Source of the DNA: Nitrospiria bacterium
GTDB lineage: Bacteria; Nitrospirota; Nitrospiria; JACQBZ01
DNA: 64,000 bases
Direction of reading: 5' to 3'
Assembly: GCA_035498035.1 (NCBI GenBank)
Contig: DATKAN010000025.1
Span: 17,190-81,189, forward strand
Within the stretch, counting starts at the first letter, position 1. Every line of letters begins with the position of its first letter. Under the pieces are notes generated by a model, which was not told the origin of the DNA, made no database searches, and was given only the letters and a program-made list of their open reading frames with translations. Position numbers and translations under genes: made by a program. This document shows, piece by piece, positions 5,083-59,765 of the stretch.

Positions 5083-5645
5083 GATTTTCTCCTCTGATTG
5101 AAGGATGGTTTTCGTTTCGCGGGTCGGGCGCGTCCTTGAACGGCCCGTTTATAGTCCTGCGCGTACCGGACATAGTTGCTTGCGGCTTTCAGAATATAGT
5201 CGCGTTGTTCGGGACGGATGGGCTGAATGGGCCGGCCGGGAATCCCCGTGACCAGGAAACCGGGAGGGATAACCGTATTTTCGGTCACCACCGCGCCGGC
5301 GCCGATCAGCGCGTTCTCGCCGATGACGGCACCGTTCAAGACGACCGCTCCGATCCCGATCATCGCTCCGTCCTTGACGGTGGCCCCATGCACCATCGCG
5401 CCGTGGCCGATCGTGACGCGGCTTCCGATCACACAGGGAAATCCGTGTCCGACATGAAGAACCGCCCCATCCTGGATGTTGGTCTCTTCCCCCACGCGAA
5501 TGGGGGCGATATCGCCGCGAACCACGGCCGAGAACCAGACGCTGGAGGACTTTCCGATCGAAACGTCGCCCACAACGGTGGCCGTTTCTGCGATGAAGAC
5601 CGAGGGATCGATCTTATTGCGAGACGGGCTGGAGGGGGAAGGCAT
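5079..5645 (-). CDS. Gamma-carbonic-anhydrase / hexapeptide-repeat (LbH) family protein
   Basis: Hexapeptide repeats, gamma-class carbonic anhydrase family (YrdA/PaaY-like); its N-terminus resembles the start at MPSPSS. Confidence 0.7.
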   Translation of the reverse strand: MPSPSSPSRNKIDPSVFIAETATVVGDVSIGKSSSVWFSAVVRGDIAPIRVGEETNIQDGAVLHVGHGFPCVIGSRVTIGHGAMVHGATVKDGAMIGIGAVVLNGAVIGENALIGAGAVVTENTVIPPGFLVTGIPGRPIQPIRPEQRDYILKAASNYVRYAQDYKRAVQGRARPAKRKPSFNQRRKS

Positions 5646-22085: not shown

Positions 22086-22631
22086 ACAAAAATGCGCACT
22101 GAAGCGGTTCGTAAGCCGAGTTCTGTGCCCCTTTGGATCGCTCCGCCGGGGTGGCGATCATTTCTCTGGGATCCCGATTACTCGGGACCTCAAGCAACCA
22201 ACCCGTTCCGCCTATTATATTCGGGAGCCCGTGCGGCAAAGAAGGACCGAAGGTCCACCGATGCCCCCGCCCCCCGCGCTCGCGCCGGCGAAGCCGGCCG
22301 CTCGCTTATAATTTCGAACGGGCCGTTCTATGGCCCTCACGGACCAGACGGAACCTATTTGGTCTTGCTCCGGATGGGGTTTGCCGTGCCCCCGTCATCA
22401 CTGACGGGGCGGTGAGCTCTTACCTCGCCGTTTCACCCTTGCCCGTATGCGTCCGAGATGGCTGGAGCTCCCTGCCACCTCTTTCGCACCGTCGGCGGTC
22501 TGTTCTCTGTGGCACTTTCCGTCCCCTCGCGAGGCCTGGGCGTTACCCAGCATCCCGCCCTCTGGAGCTCGGACTTTCCTCACCCCGCGTGCTCGTGCGG
22601 GGCGCGATCACCTGAACCACTTCAGTGCGCA
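22086..22631 (-). ncRNA. rnpB: RNase P RNA (bacterial type A), unusually long (~545 nt)
   Basis: Minus-strand conserved blocks: AGGAAAGTCCGAGCTCC (RC of 22568-22584), GGGTAACGCCCAGG (RC of ~22540), ACAGAACTCGGCTTAC (RC of ~22110). P1 pairing between the 5' GTGCGCACTGAAGTGGTTC and the 3' GAACCGCTTCAGTGCGCA. Confidence 0.75.
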
Positions 22632-37458: not shown

Positions 37459-37648
37459 GACGCCGTATCACGCATCGACGCGAAGAACCTGCTTTCATCG
37501 AATACCAAATTGGAACCCGTCGCGGCCCGCACAAATCCCCATCCACTCTATATATAGTGATGCAGATCGAATATATTCGATTTCCTGCCCTGATAACAAC
37601 ATAGGTGACACCCTGATCAACTCGACCCTCCCTGCTCCGTGGCCGCAG

Positions 37649-37740
37649 TTCGACCGGACTAAGGCTCGTCCGCTCAATTTTCCGAAGGGGCTTGGCGGAA
37701 AATTGACCCTGAAGGGCCGCGTCCTTCGCCGAGTCCGGTG
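37649..37740. repeat. Repeat family B, copy 1 (~92 nt, terminal inverted repeats ACCGGACT / AGTCCGGT)
   Basis: Aligns at about 70% with 58450..58547. In copy 2 the terminal stem changes compensatorily to ACCCGACT / AGTCGGGT. Confidence 0.5.
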
Positions 37741-37828
37741 CCCGAACCTCGGCCAAGTCGCGACTCGGGCCGATGCTGATCAGTGTCACCCATATCTATT
37801 TTCATCAAAATAGATTCGATTTTCCCCC

Positions 37829-37878
37829 TTGACAAGCCCCGCCCGCTCGATTATAGTATAGGTGTCCATTTGGACACC
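37829..37878 (+). promoter_or_regulatory. lexA promoter (TTGACA-17-TATAGT) with 7-4-7 perfect palindrome GGTGTCC-ATTT-GGACACC at +1 (candidate LexA operator)
   Basis: -35 at 37829-37834, -10 at 37852-37857, palindrome at 37861-37878. lexA ATG at 37891. Confidence 0.5.
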
Positions 37879-37890
37879 CATTGAATCCCG

Positions 37891-38499
37891 ATGAAGAACC
37901 CGCTGACCGACAGGCAGGCCGAGGTCCTGAACTTCGTGAATCAATTCATCGCGAGGTCCGGATATCCGCCCACCGTCCGCGAGATCGCACGGCATCTCGG
38001 GATCCGCGGACACCACGCGGTCCGAAAGCATCTCCTGGCTTTGGAAAAAAACGGTCACCTCACCCGCGGGCGCGGCGCGCGATCGATCGGGATCGCCGAT
38101 CAACCTCAGGCCGTTTCCGTCCCGATCCTGGGCCAGGTGGCCGCGGGAAAGCCCATTCTCGCGGAAGAAAACATCCTCGGAACTTTGGCGTTGGACCGAT
38201 CCGTGACGCGCGGGGGTCCGGTCTTCCTTTTGAAGATCAAGGGCGACAGCATGATCGGAGCCGGAATTTTAGACGGCGATTACGTGCTGGTGAAAGCGCA
38301 GGCCCAGGCCGAGAACGGGGAGATCGCGGTGGTCCTGGCGGAGGACGAGGCCACCGTGAAGCGCGTCTTCCGCCGCGGCGACAAGATCGTTCTGCAACCC
38401 GAGAACCCCGCGCATCAACCCATGACATTCACCCCAAAAGACGCCCTTCGTATCCTCGGCAAGGTCCTGGGCGTGGTCCGGTTTCCCAATCTCAATTAG
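37891..38499 (+). CDS. lexA: LexA repressor (winged-helix DBD + S24 peptidase)
   Basis: LexA_DNA_bind N-terminus (TDRQAEVLNFV...GYPPTVREIA). AG cleavage site (QVAAGKPI). Ser-Lys dyad (KGDSMIGAGI...AVVLAEDEATVKR). Confidence 0.85.
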   Translation: MKNPLTDRQAEVLNFVNQFIARSGYPPTVREIARHLGIRGHHAVRKHLLALEKNGHLTRGRGARSIGIADQPQAVSVPILGQVAAGKPILAEENILGTLALDRSVTRGGPVFLLKIKGDSMIGAGILDGDYVLVKAQAQAENGEIAVVLAEDEATVKRVFRRGDKIVLQPENPAHQPMTFTPKDALRILGKVLGVVRFPNLN

Positions 38500-38517
38500 T
38501 CAAGAGGAGAGCTTCGA

Positions 38518-38747
38518 TGGCTGAGCAAAATTATTTTTACTGGAGATGCCCCGACTGCGTTCATGTGCGAGATCTGGATCTGGGAAAGATGACAAACCGC
38601 TGTCGGCTCATCGATCAGGGAGAATCGCCGGTGGATGGAACGCTCTGGGAAAACCAGGATCACGACCTCTGCCCGGTCTTCGAACCCAAAGCCGATCAAC
38701 ACGCAGCCGTACTGATGGCCCAAGGACGCACAACGCAAAGTCTCTAA
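38518..38747 (+). CDS. Small C4 zinc-ribbon protein (76 aa)
   Basis: CPDC...C...C. Strong SD AAGAGGAGAG 6 nt upstream. 18 nt after the lexA stop. Confidence 0.45.
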
Positions 38748-38783: not shown

Positions 38784-39494
38784 ATGGCCGATCCTTCTTC
38801 TCAATCGTCGTTGTTCGAAATCGAAGCGACCGATCTTTCCTGGCAGAAGATCGTCACGCCGGCCGCCTTGGAAGCCGTGGCGCGGGATCAGGGCCGGATC
38901 ATCGGGTTCATCGGACATCGCGGGGTGTTCGCGCTCGGCCATTATTTGATGGCCTGGCGACTGCTTCAGGACGAGTCGGTCGTCCTGGTCGACGGGGCCA
39001 ACATCATAGACCTCCCGCTGATCCTGAAGCTCACGGACGGTCCTAAAACGAATCGCCGGCGGCTCCTGGACCGTCTCCATCTATCACGGGCCTTCACCGC
39101 GCACCAGTTGGAGGCCGTCATTTGCGAGCGCTTGGAGAAAGCGCTCCAAAAATACAAAAGCCGTCTTTGCTTCGTCTCCGGATTGCTGGACACGTTCTAT
39201 GACGAGGAAGTTCCGGCGTGGGAAGCGACGCGCATCCTTCGCAAGACGACGGAAAAGCTCCGCGCCTTGGCGCATCAAGGCTGCCGACTGATCCTTCTGG
39301 CCCCCGACCCGCCTGCGCCGACAGCGCAGAGGAAAAACCTCGCGCCCTTCGTAATCAAATCCGCGAACCGGATTTTTGCGTTGGTCCATGAGAAGGATCG
39401 ATACCTGCTGATCGACGACGCCCAAACCGCACGAGATAAGCACTGGGTCCTTCCTTTGATGCCGTTCTCGATCAAGCGATCTTCTTCGAGGTGA
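38784..39494 (+). CDS. Degenerate RecA-fold protein, ImuA/SulA-like
   Basis: GRIIGFIGHRGVFALGHYLMAW...ESVVLVDGANIID aligns with the RecA/KaiC Walker A region (GKT lost). Later CRLILLAPD strand. About 237 aa as in ImuA. An alternative TTG start at 38760. Confidence 0.5.
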   Translation: MADPSSQSSLFEIEATDLSWQKIVTPAALEAVARDQGRIIGFIGHRGVFALGHYLMAWRLLQDESVVLVDGANIIDLPLILKLTDGPKTNRRRLLDRLHLSRAFTAHQLEAVICERLEKALQKYKSRLCFVSGLLDTFYDEEVPAWEATRILRKTTEKLRALAHQGCRLILLAPDPPAPTAQRKNLAPFVIKSANRIFALVHEKDRYLLIDDAQTARDKHWVLPLMPFSIKRSSSR

Positions 39495-39497
39495 TTC

Positions 39498-39770
39498 ATG
39501 GGCCGGACGCTGGCCACCTTCACGATGCAGGTCAATCAGGCCCTGGAGGAATGGGGAAAATTTAAACGGGCCCTGCGCAAAGAGGATCAGGCGATTATCG
39601 AGTTGCTTTTTGCCGATGCGCGCTATCATGCGCAGGCCGGGGCTTATCTCGCGCCGACCGATCCCTTCTCGGCCATGCTCCTTTCGATGCTGCTCGAGGA
39701 ACGCAAAGCGCGTCTGGCTTTGGAGAAACGGCTCCATGAACTCGAAACCGGATTCAAGGCGCAGGCTTAG
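39498..39770 (+). CDS. Small helical hypothetical protein (90 aa)
   Basis: ATG 4 nt after the preceding stop. Coding-like composition. No family recognised. Confidence 0.4.
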   Translation: MGRTLATFTMQVNQALEEWGKFKRALRKEDQAIIELLFADARYHAQAGAYLAPTDPFSAMLLSMLLEERKARLALEKRLHELETGFKAQA

Positions 39771-41970
39771 GGGCTGGTTGTTCGACGTCTACCCTGCCGC
39801 TGAAGGCATGGTCCTCTGGATCATCGCGGAGGACGGACGTCGGCTCCGGCTGACCGATCCGTTTCATCCTTCCTTTTATTTCGAGGGTCCGTCGATTGAA
39901 TCAAGAAACGCCGTTCTTCATCTGTCACGCGAAAAGACTCCCGTCACGGCCCGGCACGTCGAGCGCAGCGAGTTCTTCAGCGGCCGGGCGATCCCGGTGG
40001 TGCAGGTTACAGTCCACGATCCCACGGAATACGTCGGCATCGTAAAGAGGCTCGTCCGTATCGGCGACCGACTGCAATTCTATAATTGTGACATCGACCT
40101 CTCTCAGCTCTATTTCTATGAACGAAACCTATTCCCTTTGGCCTTGTGTTCCGTGGATCGCACCGAAACGGAAACGATCCAAACCATCCAAGCGCTCGAT
40201 TCGCCCTGGGATCCGGATTATTCCCTTCCCCCGCTCCGCTCCATGCATCTGCGGTTGGAAGGGGACCTCATCAATCCAAATCACGGAGGTCAAGGGAAGC
40301 TTGAGATCCGGGATGACCATGGCCGGTGTGTGCTTGAAGGGGATGATCCGGCCGAGGTGTTGACCGGGCTCAACAATCACCTCCGTAAAAACGATCCGGA
40401 CCTGATTTTCACCGATTGGGGAGACTCCTTCATCATCCCGCATGTTCAAATGCTTTCGGAGCGATGCAGGATTCCGGTCGCCTTCAATCGCGACAGGCGC
40501 ATGGCGATCGCCGGGAAAAAGATGCGTTCCTATGCCTCCTATGGACGGATGGTCCACAGCGCCGGGGCGCAGACCTTCTTCGGCCGTTGGCACATCGACC
40601 GGCAGAATTCGTTCATTCTCAACGAGGCGGGTCTCGAAGGACTGTTTGAACAGGCCCGGGTCACAAAGCTCCCGATTCAGCATATGGCCCGGACCTCGAC
40701 CGGAACGGGGATCACCTCCATGCAGCTTGAGACGGCTTACCGGGCGGGAATCCTCATTCCGTGGCGAAAGAGCGAGCCGGAGGAGTTCAAGTCCGGCTTC
40801 GAGCTGCTCACGATCGATAAAGGCGGCATGGTCTTTCTTCCGCCGGTGGGTTTTCAGGAAGAGGTCGCCGAGCTTGATTTCGCCTCGATGTATCCCGCCA
40901 TCATGGCCCGGTTCAACATCTCGCCCGAAACGGTCGGCTGTTCCTGCTGCCCCGGAAATCGCGTTCCGGAAACGGGCTATACGATCTGCACAAAACGAAA
41001 GGGACTTGTCCCGGAAACCCTCGAGCCGCTTCTTGCCAAGCGAGCGCAGTATAAACAACGACTCAAATCCACGACCGATCCGAAACGGCGTGAACGTTAC
41101 GATCAGCGCCAGAACGCGCTGAAATGGCTGCTCGTGGTCTCCTTCGGTTATCTGGGTTACAAGAATGCCCGTTTCGGGCGCATCGAAGCGCATGAGTGCG
41201 TGACGGCTTACAGTCGTGAGACGCTTCTTCAAGCCAAGGAGATTGCGGAAGGCCGTGGCTATCAACTCCTCCATGCCATCGTGGATTCCGTCTGGGTCAA
41301 GAAGGCCGGTGCGACGGAGCCCGACTATCGGAAGCTTGCGGATGCGATCACTCAGGGAACCGGCCTTCCGATCAACCTGGAAGGGATTTATCGTTGGATC
41401 GGGTTCCTTCCCTCGAAGACGCGGCCGAGCCTTTCGGTTCCGAACCGGTTTTTGGGCGTCTTTCGTACCGGAGCGATGAAGATACGGGGCCTGGAAGTGC
41501 GCCGCACCGACACGCCTTCCCTGGTCAAAGAAGCTCAAACCCGTATGATCGAGGTTTTAAATCAGGCCCAGGATCTTAAAGAATATGAGGCACAAATTCC
41601 TGAGGTCGTCAAAATCCTGGCCGAATACCGTCGGCGACTCGTTGAAGGACAGGTCAATCTAAGAGAGCTGGTCATCACGCGAACTCTTTCCCAGGACCCC
41701 CGGGAATACAAGAAGGCGACGCTTTCGGCCGTGGTTTCCCATGAACTGTTGGCCCGCGGGGTCAAACTCGCGCCGGGGGAAGCGATTCAGTACGTCATCA
41801 CCCATGACGCGGATAAAGATCCGGCCGGCCGGGCCCGGGCCTATGCGACCCTCACGGCGGATCATGCCTATGACGTCGAAAAGTACAGCGAGCTGCTTTT
41901 AAAAAGCGGTGAAAGCCTCCTCGCCCTGTTTGGCTACGATCTTAAAAGGCTGGAGCAATTGACCCGATAA
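39736..41970 (+). CDS. Family-B DNA polymerase, divergent: exonuclease motifs inactivated, polymerase motifs B/C and KKRY eroded
   Basis: PolB N-terminal domain (GWLFDVYP...). Motif A DFASMYPAIM intact. Motif B KWLLVVSFGYLG (N and Y lost). Motif C HAIVDS versus YGDTDS. Exo I RLE versus DIE. Exo II FTDWGDSFII (FD lost). KKRY replaced by NRFL. Start overlaps the upstream small ORF by 35 nt; alternative TTG at 39784. Confidence 0.8.
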   Translation: MNSKPDSRRRLRGWLFDVYPAAEGMVLWIIAEDGRRLRLTDPFHPSFYFEGPSIESRNAVLHLSREKTPVTARHVERSEFFSGRAIPVVQVTVHDPTEYVGIVKRLVRIGDRLQFYNCDIDLSQLYFYERNLFPLALCSVDRTETETIQTIQALDSPWDPDYSLPPLRSMHLRLEGDLINPNHGGQGKLEIRDDHGRCVLEGDDPAEVLTGLNNHLRKNDPDLIFTDWGDSFIIPHVQMLSERCRIPVAFNRDRRMAIAGKKMRSYASYGRMVHSAGAQTFFGRWHIDRQNSFILNEAGLEGLFEQARVTKLPIQHMARTSTGTGITSMQLETAYRAGILIPWRKSEPEEFKSGFELLTIDKGGMVFLPPVGFQEEVAELDFASMYPAIMARFNISPETVGCSCCPGNRVPETGYTICTKRKGLVPETLEPLLAKRAQYKQRLKSTTDPKRRERYDQRQNALKWLLVVSFGYLGYKNARFGRIEAHECVTAYSRETLLQAKEIAEGRGYQLLHAIVDSVWVKKAGATEPDYRKLADAITQGTGLPINLEGIYRWIGFLPSKTRPSLSVPNRFLGVFRTGAMKIRGLEVRRTDTPSLVKEAQTRMIEVLNQAQDLKEYEAQIPEVVKILAEYRRRLVEGQVNLRELVITRTLSQDPREYKKATLSAVVSHELLARGVKLAPGEAIQYVITHDADKDPAGRARAYATLTADHAYDVEKYSELLLKSGESLLALFGYDLKRLEQLTR

Positions 41971-42024: not shown

Positions 42025-42717
42025 ATGTGCGCGAGATACACCCTTACGGAAGAGATCATCCTGATCCTGAAACGCCTGTTGATCAAGTCCCCGATGAGAG
42101 ACTTCCACCCGCGGTATAATATCGCGCCCTCCCAGAACGCGCCCGTCATCCTGAACGAAGAGGGAAGATCGGTTCAAGTCTTCCGCTGGGGGCTCATCCC
42201 CTCCTGGGCCAAGGATCCGTCCATCGGCTATAAGTTGATCAATGCCCGCGCCGAGTCGGTCGCCGAGAAACCCAGTTTCAGAAATGCATTTAAAAAAAGA
42301 AGATGCCTCATTCCGGCCGACGGGTTTTATGAATGGCGTTTGGAATCGGACGGCCGAACGAAGACCCCCATGCGAATCCGGCTCAAATCAAAGGAGCCGT
42401 TCACCTTCGCCGGGCTATGGGAAACATGGAAGGACCGGCAGGAAAAAGAGTTTCGGACCTTTACGATCATTACGACCGAGCCGAATGAAATCCTGCAACC
42501 GATACATAACCGGATCCCCGTGATCATGAAACCGGAGGATGAAGAAGCCTGGCTCGACCCGCAGGCCGACGTCAAGCATTTGGAAAAGATTTTAGCGCCC
42601 TATTCGTCAAACGAGATGGAAGCCTACGCGGTGTCTAAGTTGGTCAACAGTCCGAAACACGATTCGCCCGACTGCATCGAACCGGCCGTGGTCCCACCTC
42701 CTTCCACGCTATTTTAA
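42025..42717 (+). CDS. yedK: SOS-response-associated peptidase (SRAP/YedK/HMCES family), abasic-site DNA-protein crosslinking enzyme
   Basis: Starts MCARY (invariant Cys2 nucleophile). SRAP core motifs (PRYNIAPSQ, FRWGLIPSWAKD, INARAE, RCLIPADGFYEW). Confidence 0.8.
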   Translation: MCARYTLTEEIILILKRLLIKSPMRDFHPRYNIAPSQNAPVILNEEGRSVQVFRWGLIPSWAKDPSIGYKLINARAESVAEKPSFRNAFKKRRCLIPADGFYEWRLESDGRTKTPMRIRLKSKEPFTFAGLWETWKDRQEKEFRTFTIITTEPNEILQPIHNRIPVIMKPEDEEAWLDPQADVKHLEKILAPYSSNEMEAYAVSKLVNSPKHDSPDCIEPAVVPPPSTLF

Positions 42718-53197: not shown

Positions 53198-53225
53198 GTA
53201 GGGGCGTACGGCCGTACGCCCCTAC
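53198..53225. repeat. 28-bp perfect palindrome GTAGGGGCGTACGGCCGTACGCCCCTAC (palindrome family C, copy 1)
   Basis: Perfect dyad. Covers the ATPase stop codon. 16 nt upstream of the permease ATG. The other copy at 59738..59765 shares the 11-nt arms GTAGGGGCGTA / TACGCCCCTAC. Confidence 0.6.
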
Positions 53226-58387: not shown

Positions 58388-58449
58388 TGCAAACTCATCC
58401 TTTACACCAGAAGCGGCTGGCATGTCTCCTCTCGGCTTCGCGGCGCTGC

Positions 58450-58547
58450 TTTGACCCGACTAAGGCTGGGCCGCTGAATTTCACGAAGAATCTTGGCGCG
58501 AGATTTTCCCCGTTAGCACGGGGTCGCAGCCTTCGCCAAGTCGGGTA
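58450..58547. repeat. Repeat family B, copy 2, intergenic between the FtsX permease and the ATPase
   Basis: Terminal stem ACCCGACT / AGTCGGGT. Internal CCCCG-ttagca-CGGGG hairpin. Confidence 0.5.
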
Positions 58548-59737: not shown

Positions 59738-59765
59738 GTAGGGGCGTATCGCGATACGCCCCTAC
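59738..59765. repeat. 28-bp perfect palindrome GTAGGGGCGTATCGCGATACGCCCCTAC (palindrome family C, copy 2)
   Basis: Between the tetR stop (59773) and the permease ATG (59716). Perfect dyad. Confidence 0.6.

Follow-up and report, generated by a model that had tools for sequence, protein, structure and literature searches.

The lexA gene of a Nitrospiria bacterium, which lies in the 64,000 nucleotides (nt) of contig DATKAN010000025.1 analysed here (hereafter the window), is preceded by a GC-rich dyad, GGTGTCCA-TT-TGGACACC (37861–37878, no strand assigned). This dyad is very probably the operator through which LexA represses its own promoter and thereby the operon of the DNA polymerase PolB2 that lexA heads. 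Its conservation in orthologous promoters, the symmetric covariation of its arms, the promoter geometry and its link with the LexA recognition helix together point to a LexA operator. These features, the sequence itself and the operon content are observed directly, and from them we infer LexA binding, repression, co-transcription and inducibility by DNA damage. A LexA dimer on 37861–37878, over the transcription start, would block binding or escape of RNA polymerase, and repression of the lexA promoter would extend to the co-transcribed translesion operon orf76-iRadA-PPB2-PolB2-SRAP, in which orf76 is a 76-residue Cys-rich open reading frame (ORF). When DNA is damaged, RecA would stimulate LexA to cleave itself, and the operon would be released; the protein retains the Ala-Gly site, the Ser and the Lys. 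Within this scheme the frame GGTR..CA..TG..YACC would stay fixed and the inner half-site bases would change from AA through TA to TC along with LexA residues 41 and 42.

An earlier note on this DNA, made from the sequence alone, had described two perfect palindromes flanking the lexA promoter, and a check of the sequence finds both as described (37861–37878 and 37794–37815). In a promoter scan the −35 hexamer TTGACA (37829–37834, plus strand) and the −10 hexamer TATAGT (37852–37857, plus strand; conserved throughout the clade's class-A promoters, defined below) form a sigma-70-type promoter with a 17-nt spacer and 11 of 12 consensus matches (37829–37857), located between both proximal dyads. 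The GC-rich dyad begins 3 nt past the −10 hexamer and covers approximately +1 to +18 of the predicted transcript. It is thus placed like a repressor operator, as the note had proposed, and it has the same place in orthologous promoters. Written there as GGTGTCC-ATTT-GGACACC, it is an 8+2+8 palindrome, since the outermost spacer bases also pair, and the flanking A37860 is part of a conserved AGGTG...CACCT frame. The motif is single-copy in the window: in a scan of the 64 kb with a position-specific scoring matrix it reaches 29.7 bits and the runner-up 3.4 bits.

Taken singly, each of the three palindromes of this region (the two above and ATCGAATATATTCGAT further upstream) is within chance for 64 kb. 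The window holds four 8+2+8, four 9+4+9 and four 8+0+8 palindromes, against 1.8, 0.55 and 1.95 in dinucleotide shuffles; when all arms of 8 or more and all loops from 0 to 6 are admitted, the count is 23 entries (about 12 distinct), against 11. What is non-random is that a single intergenic region has three palindromes in 320 nt, and what is decisive is the conservation of the GC-rich dyad. As single palindromes are no rarer than in shuffled sequence, the case for function must rest on comparison. The mean GC content of the window is about 59%, below the more than 60% that had been claimed for the genome.

For this comparison, lexA upstream regions were drawn from metagenome contigs, from contigs encoding particular LexA homologues and from GTDB genomes; the GTDB collection was scanned with peptide patterns from the LexA alignment, and the best LexA among the matches listed was 66% identical. 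Each of the 28 other lexA promoters compared has a dyad at this position; counting the window, there are 27 distinct sequences, mostly from Nitrospirota, and the LexA proteins are 43–95% identical to that of the window. The dyad lies at the −10 hexamer or the start site in 29 of 29 promoters, window included, and TTGAC is at the corresponding place in 28 of these. Upstream of about −50 the orthologous regions are unalignable; the promoter and the dyad are always there. The 27 distinct dyads fit GGTR-NN-CA-NN-TG-NN-YACC with identical spacing in all (as a search pattern, GGT[GA]TCCANNTGGA[CT]ACC). The outer GGT/ACC and the inner CA/TG are nearly fixed, and the middle dinucleotide varies symmetrically in both arms. 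When the eight arm positions of the 27 dyads are treated as pairs, 92.6% of the arm cells are complementary, and 35 cells have changes on both arms compared with 12.8 ± 3.5 after shuffling (none of 500 shuffles reached the observed number). In a shifted register, arm complementarity falls to 25–46%.

The half-sites of these operators form a graded series from GAAC through GTAC to GTCC (and ATCC). The window has GGTGTCCATTTGGACACC, and its nearest counterparts are GGTGTCCATTTGGATACC (loci L007, L013, L290 and L291) and GGTATCCATTTGGATACC (L006 and L292). The other operators are GGTGAGCATGTGCTCACC in L294–L296, GGTGTACATTTGTACACC in L008, GGTGTACAAATGTACACC in L306, GGTGAACATATGTTCACC in L207, GGTGAACACTTGTTCACC in L010 and L011, GGTAGTCATATGACTACC in L215, GGTAGTCAAATGACTACC in L216, GGTAGACAAATGTCTACC in L014 (with near-identical variants in L015–L018 and L021) and GGTATACGTTTGTATACC in L226, from Bacteroidota. 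Mixed-arm intermediates occur in L205 (GAAC with GTAC) and L012 (GTAC with GTTC), and the operator of L009 is asymmetric. Orthologues with a 66–77% identical LexA carry GGTGAACA-NN-TGTTCACC at the homologous place, containing a GAAC-N4-GTTC core, and other relatives carry GTAC-N4-GTAC, which is cyanobacteria-like. The window site has the layout of this class, with two inverted tetranucleotides and a 4-nt spacer (GTCC-ATTT-GGAC within GGTGTCCATTTGGACACC), and its GTCC/GGAC departs from the GAAC/GTTC consensus, which L010, L011, L207 and L209 match, by two mismatches per half-site. Because the homologous positions in relatives carry GAAC or GTAC cores, we class the window motif, on sequence grounds, as a derived member of the GAAC-N4-GTTC LexA-box class, neither unrelated to it nor a new class. 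This modifies the suggestion of a lineage-specific LexA box: the motif matches no published consensus and GTCC/GGAC is limited to a small Nitrospiria sub-lineage, but it is not unrelated to known boxes.

Two promoter classes bear on the question of whether the dyad works as DNA or as RNA. In class A, which includes the window and all GTCC- and ATCC-type relatives, the −35 hexamer is followed by approximately 17 nt, TATAGT, 3 nt and the dyad. In class B (L008, L009, L012, L306 and L211–L213; n = 7), the −35 hexamer is only 13–14 nt before the dyad and the −10 hexamer (TACATT, TACAAA or TACTTT) lies inside it, so that lexA is probably transcribed with little or no leader. A GTCC arm is unable to supply such a hexamer, as TCCATT lacks the A at position 2, which fits the presence of an upstream TATAGT in every GTCC- or ATCC-type promoter. 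It has to be considered whether the dyad is mainly an RNA element, namely a 7–8-bp hairpin right at the 5′ terminus of the lexA transcript. Such a hairpin would shield the mRNA from 5′-end-dependent decay or tune the translation of its leader, which has no Shine-Dalgarno sequence, and compensatory changes would keep the pairing. The predicted start at the left dyad edge in class-A promoters and the folding energy of the hairpin GGUGUCCAUUUGGACACC (−11.4 kcal/mol, z = −3.7) would suit such an element, and compensatory arm changes are expected for RNA as much as for DNA. Nevertheless, we consider it very unlikely. In the seven orthologous class-B promoters the left arm lies upstream of the start and is left untranscribed by a −10 hexamer inside the dyad, so that no hairpin is possible. 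A fixed GGT/ACC and CA/TG with a variable middle dinucleotide is a pattern of protein recognition and not of stem stability, G-T “wobble” arms are rare, and Rfam gives no match in the lexA intergenic region. A DNA operator over the −10 hexamer or start fits both classes and an RNA hairpin fits class A only, from which we conclude that the GC-rich dyad acts as DNA.

The spelling of the operator in turn follows the recognition helix of LexA. In the alignment, window residue n corresponds to Escherichia coli residue n−1 throughout the DNA-binding domain, and G40, H42, A43, R45 and K46 of the window protein are the counterparts of the E. coli DNA contacts Ser39, Asn41, Ala42, Glu44 and Glu45 (PMC3091678), with an Asn41–base contact described in PMC5999292. 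Proteins with GHHAVRKH, GHHAARKH or GHRAVRKH at residues 40–47 are associated with [G/A]TCC (7 distinct lexA promoter loci with 3 distinct operator sequences, including the window), those with GLHAVKKH, GIHAVRKH or GLHAVRRH with GTAC (some arms GAAC), those with GLNAVKKH, GFSAIKKH or GFSAVKKH with GAAC, and GRNAVYKH (L294–L296) with GAGC. Reduced to residues 41-42-45, H-H-R or H-R-R accompanies [G/A]TCC, L/I-H-K/R accompanies GTAC, L/F-N/S-K accompanies GAAC and R-N-Y accompanies GAGC. Residue 42 (H vs. S/N) follows half-site base 5 (T vs. A), and residue 41 (H, L/I/F or R) follows half-site base 6 (C, A or G). A role of R45 in specifying C6 was considered and rejected, since P0027 and P0037 have R45 with GTAC and H41 is the better correlate.

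The helix correlation also bears on whether the dyad could belong to some regulator besides LexA, such as a different dimeric helix-turn-helix protein or the 76-residue Cys-rich protein itself. The link between LexA and the site is drawn from comparison and not from physical linkage, and the operon does contain this conserved small Cys-rich ORF. Yet lineages without orf76 (L211–L226) still have the dyad, its spacing and core match the GAAC-N4-GTTC LexA-box class in close relatives, its spelling follows LexA's own recognition helix, and autoregulation of lexA is common among described SOS systems (PMC8565304), which leaves a non-LexA operator extremely unlikely and the least probable of the readings considered here.

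Several observations weigh against the dyad being a LexA operator. The correlation between helix and operator is confounded, as the operator is approximately 150 bp from the helix codons and is co-inherited with them, and the lineages are related. The residue code fails outside the clade, where L211–L213 have N42 with GTAC. Class-A dyads, that of the window included, would also form the stable 5′ RNA hairpin of −11.4 kcal/mol. A weight-matrix scan finds no second operator in the 64-kb window, and none is present in about 41 kb from GTCC- and ATCC-type relatives (L006, L007, L013, L290, L291 and L292). The lack of a second site in the window says little, because the window has no other repair genes: none beyond the lexA operon was found among the other large window ORFs scanned against Pfam. 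Not counted among these observations is a neighbor-joining tree built from the C-terminal domain only, in which GTCC-type LexAs are scattered among other types: its alignment is short and unbootstrapped, and recombination of the N-terminal domain together with the operator would explain this scatter equally well.

A second copy does occur in a relative. The Nitrospiria metagenome-assembled genome (MAG) contig JBHHXH010000030.1 (L216) has, within 561–606, a further operator, GGTAGTCATATGACAACC, with one mismatch to the lexA operator of L216. It follows its own TTGACA promoter, upstream of a tcmP (TIGR04474)-DUF5131 pair that is itself immediately upstream of lexA. The second copy indicates that the motif is the site of a trans-acting factor and not a peculiarity of lexA leaders. 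L084, too, has a tcmP gene next to lexA, in this case downstream. Elsewhere, no operator was found upstream of the stand-alone SRAP gene of P0171 (Nitrospiria; the LexA type of this genome was not identified) or in the ruvCAB-yebC region of L205 (the uvrA start is outside the DNA compared). A recA gene is absent from all Nitrospirota loci compared. P0128, initially taken for a stand-alone SRAP gene, was discarded, as it is actually inside the operon with an IS110 element in lexA's place. Among the matches listed for viral contigs, the exact pattern GTGTCCANNTGGACAC gave only chance matches or unrelated high-GC phages. Three IMG/VR contigs (L095, L132 and L162; GC content 0.64–0.67) each have several exact copies of a perfect 16-bp palindrome, GTGTCCACGTGGACAC (at 5131, 5159 and 7856 in L132, for example); these are probably phage repressor operators and unlikely to be related to the Nitrospiria motif.

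A narrower possibility, which we put forward tentatively and think somewhat doubtful, is that this LexA serves a self-contained, horizontally mobile lexA-PolB2 module as its “private” repressor and has no target other than its own promoter. If so, there would be no large regulon, and the repressor and its operator could drift together fast. A 2021 paper on Bacteroidetes LexA (PMC8565304) counts 17 motifs across bacteria and holds that they are very stable within large groups and shift chiefly when the gene has been duplicated; given such stability, a private regulator would explain the fast operator drift seen here. Pseudomonas putida LexA2, which heads and regulates its own translesion operon, lexA2-imuABC, is a precedent for such a regulator (PMC5261740).

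The AT-rich palindromes upstream of the promoter have a different standing. The 9+4+9 dyad ATCTATTTT-CATC-AAAATAGAT (37794–37815, no strand assigned) is, as reported, a perfect 22-bp dyad upstream of the −35 hexamer; it ends 13 nt before it. The third palindrome, the 16-bp ATCGAATATATTCGAT found in a palindrome search, is likewise real and perfect, but lies at 37566–37581 (no strand assigned), one base to the right of where it had been placed. Neither has further copies in the window, and their hairpins are weak (−4.8 kcal/mol for the 22-bp dyad and −2.4 kcal/mol for the 16-bp palindrome). In the comparison the AT-rich dyads lack the look of conserved regulatory sites, given that the 22-bp dyad is in no orthologue and that the 16-bp palindrome is in only two other lineages. 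The 22-bp dyad occurs only in contigs of the same strain (L001–L004) and is missing from all orthologues, including L013 and L290 with their 90–95% identical LexA. Directly upstream of the −35 hexamer, L006 (in imperfect form) and L294–L296 keep the 16-bp palindrome behind (TA)n-ATGATGCAG; the other orthologues lack it. Among L294–L296, whose LexA is identical, the (TA)n tract upstream of the palindrome differs in length: L294 and L295 have about 5 repeats, whereas L296, where the tract is at a contig end, has at least 13. The difference is due to microsatellite variation or is an artefact of assembly.

Relative to L006 and L294–L296, the window has about 239 nt of extra DNA at 37584–37822 (no strand assigned), delimited by repeat search, blastn of the intergenic region and alignments. 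It is bounded by a direct repeat matching at 13 of 14 positions, AATA[T/G]ATTCGATTT, whose right copy, AATAGATTCGATTT, shares bases with the right arm of the 22-bp dyad. The extra DNA also holds 19-nt imperfect inverted repeats (37601–37619 and 37777–37795) and a decayed-looking copy of the promoter and operator, GATAACAACATAGGTG-ACACC (37592–37612, ...ATAGGTG-ACACC); it may have arisen by insertion or by tandem duplication. Also within it, an intergenic element of approximately 100 nt at 37627–37739 has a second copy at 58428–58546 (about 70% identical, E = 4e-6). Both copies fold as a long hairpin with a compensatory change in the closing stem (ACCGGACU/AGUCCGGU vs. ACCCGACU/AGUCGGGU), and neither has an Rfam match; the element could be a small RNA or a repeat resembling REP (repetitive extragenic palindromic) sequences or MITEs (miniature inverted-repeat transposable elements).

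Most likely, then, the AT-rich palindromes are by-products of AT-rich promoter-upstream DNA and of local insertion or duplication. The 22-bp dyad is probably incidental, possibly an A/T-rich tract similar to an UP element, and the 16-bp palindrome is unexplained, with a low prior for a conserved function. Alternatively, the AT-rich dyads might bind a second regulator or a nucleoid protein, around −50 to −70 and around −290, and so give the promoter an extra input. The clustering of three perfect palindromes within 320 nt speaks for such sites, as do the position of the 22-bp dyad, where UP elements and class-I activators act, and the retention of the 16-bp palindrome with its (TA)n neighbor directly upstream of the −35 hexamer in L006 and L294–L296. 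We regard this as rather unlikely because no orthologue has the 22-bp dyad, even at 90–95% LexA identity (L013 and L290), because that dyad straddles the junction of the strain-specific extra DNA, and because the dyads have no further copies in the window and each palindrome is singly within chance.

The predicted operator belongs to a gene that, by its domains and alignment, is a bona fide lexA. It encodes 202 residues (37891–38499, plus strand; GenBank HTN43070.1, an identical protein listed as “MAG TPA: Nitrospiria bacterium”) with a winged helix-turn-helix domain (PF01726, 1e-18) and an S24 peptidase domain (PF00717, 3.5e-34), and matches the NCBIfam equivalog TIGR00498 with 197 bits at a cut-off of 111. 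The cleavage site Ala85-Gly86, Ser120 and Lys157 are invariant in an alignment of 35 clade sequences and align with A84-G85, S119 and K156 of E. coli LexA (residues from PMC3091678), to whose structures (3jso and 7b5g) the window protein can be aligned. A 12-nt insertion, CATTGAATCCCG, separates the operator from the ATG (37879–37893) and is also present in L005 and L013 and, diverged, in L290. In the minimum-free-energy fold its CAUUG can pair with CGAUG in a 5-bp hairpin, which would sequester the start codon. The ATG is 1–3 bases past the operator in 13 of 17 other clade members, whose leaders show no evident Shine-Dalgarno sequence.

Downstream of lexA, all on the plus strand, are orf76 (38517–38747), a 236-residue ORF that is presumed to be iRadA, an inactivated RadA/Rad51 homologue (38784–39494), PPB2 (39498–39770), PolB2 (39736–41970) and, as the last gene of the operon, a YedK-like SRAP abasic-site protection protein (42025–42717; PF02586, E = 3e-77), which has the same operon position in L006, L290 and L305. 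orf76 is called in all clade contigs; in tblastn searches it is 54–100% identical and confined to the Nitrospiria clade with at least 66% identical LexA. Its CPDC...C...C pattern is zinc-ribbon-like, it has no family match, and it is absent from the retrieved passages of PMC11791011 on the PolB2 operon. The presumed iRadA has no sequence match in Pfam, NCBIfam or the PDB, and its assignment relies on the gene order, as given in the passages of PMC11791011, and on its being kept beside lexA. PPB2 has 90 residues with a DUF8156 domain (PF26485 in precomputed annotation), and its N-terminus, MGRTLATF, has the MGRT motif of the PPB2 description in those passages. PolB2 is a family-B DNA polymerase (PF00136, E = 2e-41) that matches the NCBIfam type B polymerase models below their cut-offs; against plasmids it has haloarchaeal matches only, which fits the archaeal origin proposed in the same passages.

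According to the passages retrieved, Timinskas et al. (2025; PMC11791011) describe the order iRadA-PPB2-PolB2, the MGRT arm of PPB2 and a lexA-enriched neighborhood. The window has the same order, and on this evidence its lexA-orf76-iRadA-PPB2-PolB2-SRAP is the already described lexA-linked PolB2 “mutasome” operon. In tblastn searches lexA adjoins iRadA-PPB2-PolB2 in every clade contig of sufficient length, and the lexA-linked cassette also occurs in distant Nitrospirota and in MAGs of Bacteroidota (L226), Deltaproteobacteria (L251) and Thermodesulfobacteriota (L280). One Nitrospirota MAG, OFTM308 (JAJDBW01), has two complete lexA-iRadA-PPB2-PolB2 cassettes on different contigs (L214 and L215) with slightly different operators, GGTAGGCATATGACTACT and GGTAGTCATATGACTACC. 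In L305 an IS110-family transposase (292–1803) replaces lexA directly upstream of orf76-iRadA-PPB2-PolB2-SRAP, leaving a cassette without a repressor gene.

Elsewhere in the window, two related 24-bp perfect palindromes, AGGGGCGTA-CGGCCG-TACGCCCCT (53200–53223) and AGGGGCGTA-TCGCGA-TACGCCCCT (59740–59763), each lie in a short spacer between consecutive minus-strand genes of ATP-binding cassette (ABC) transporter operons. An Rfam scan of the whole window gave only a bacterial class A RNase P RNA (22097–22623, minus strand; 261 bits). This match is 527 nt long compared with 367 model positions, hence with sizeable insertions, and the ORF-like stretch over it (22133–22615, plus strand) is probably spurious.

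The literature searched describes no LexA-binding motif for Nitrospirota, and the operators reported here offer a candidate motif family for this phylum and for LexA proteins tied to PolB2 operons. They may also supply the regulatory element missing for bacterial PolB2 mutasome operons. The most interesting and directly testable aspect is that the specificity dinucleotide and two helix residues shift together stepwise among LexAs that are 66–100% identical. Should the private-repressor reading hold, these promoters would offer mutually orthogonal LexA-operator pairs in a natural series (GAAC, GTAC, GTCC, GAGC, AGAC, AGTC and others) with a two-residue, two-base code linking helix residues 41 and 42 to half-site positions 6 and 5, and the motif would have turned over with no gene duplication, against the view of PMC8565304. 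If the operator prediction itself is wrong, an ordinary promoter-proximal palindrome remains.

Among known LexA boxes, the window motif is closest to the Gram-positive Cheo box, CGAAC-N4-GTTCG, and the cyanobacterial box, AGTACWNWTGTACT or RGTACNNNDGTWCB (PMC3091678), with which it shares the G..C-N4-G..C arrangement, the A/T-rich center and the overlap with the lexA promoter. It differs from them in its GTCC/GGAC, which is off GAAC at 2 of 4 core positions, and in its longer (A)GGTR...YACC(T) frame with a fixed CA..TG center, which is outside the published consensus; it is also known from a single site. E. coli LexA (3jso) has the same fold and the same recognition helix, but its box (CTGT-N8-ACAG) has a spacing of N8 instead of N4 and unrelated half-sites. 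As in lexA2-imuA-imuB-imuC (dnaE2) of P. putida, where LexA2 regulates the damage-inducible operon (PMC5261740), lexA is the first gene of a translesion-polymerase operon; unlike that cassette, the module of the window is iRadA-PPB2-PolB2 with a B-family polymerase of proposed archaeal origin, not ImuA-ImuB-ImuC. The bacterial PolB2 mutasome operon in the passages of PMC11791011 agrees with that of the window in gene order, the MGRT of PPB2, the adjacent lexA and a nearby SRAP gene. Where that source deals with LexA, the operon and SOS, the passages retrieved make no mention of an operator; to the operon as presented there, our analysis adds a worked-out promoter-operator architecture and, in the 76-residue ORF, an additional clade-specific gene.

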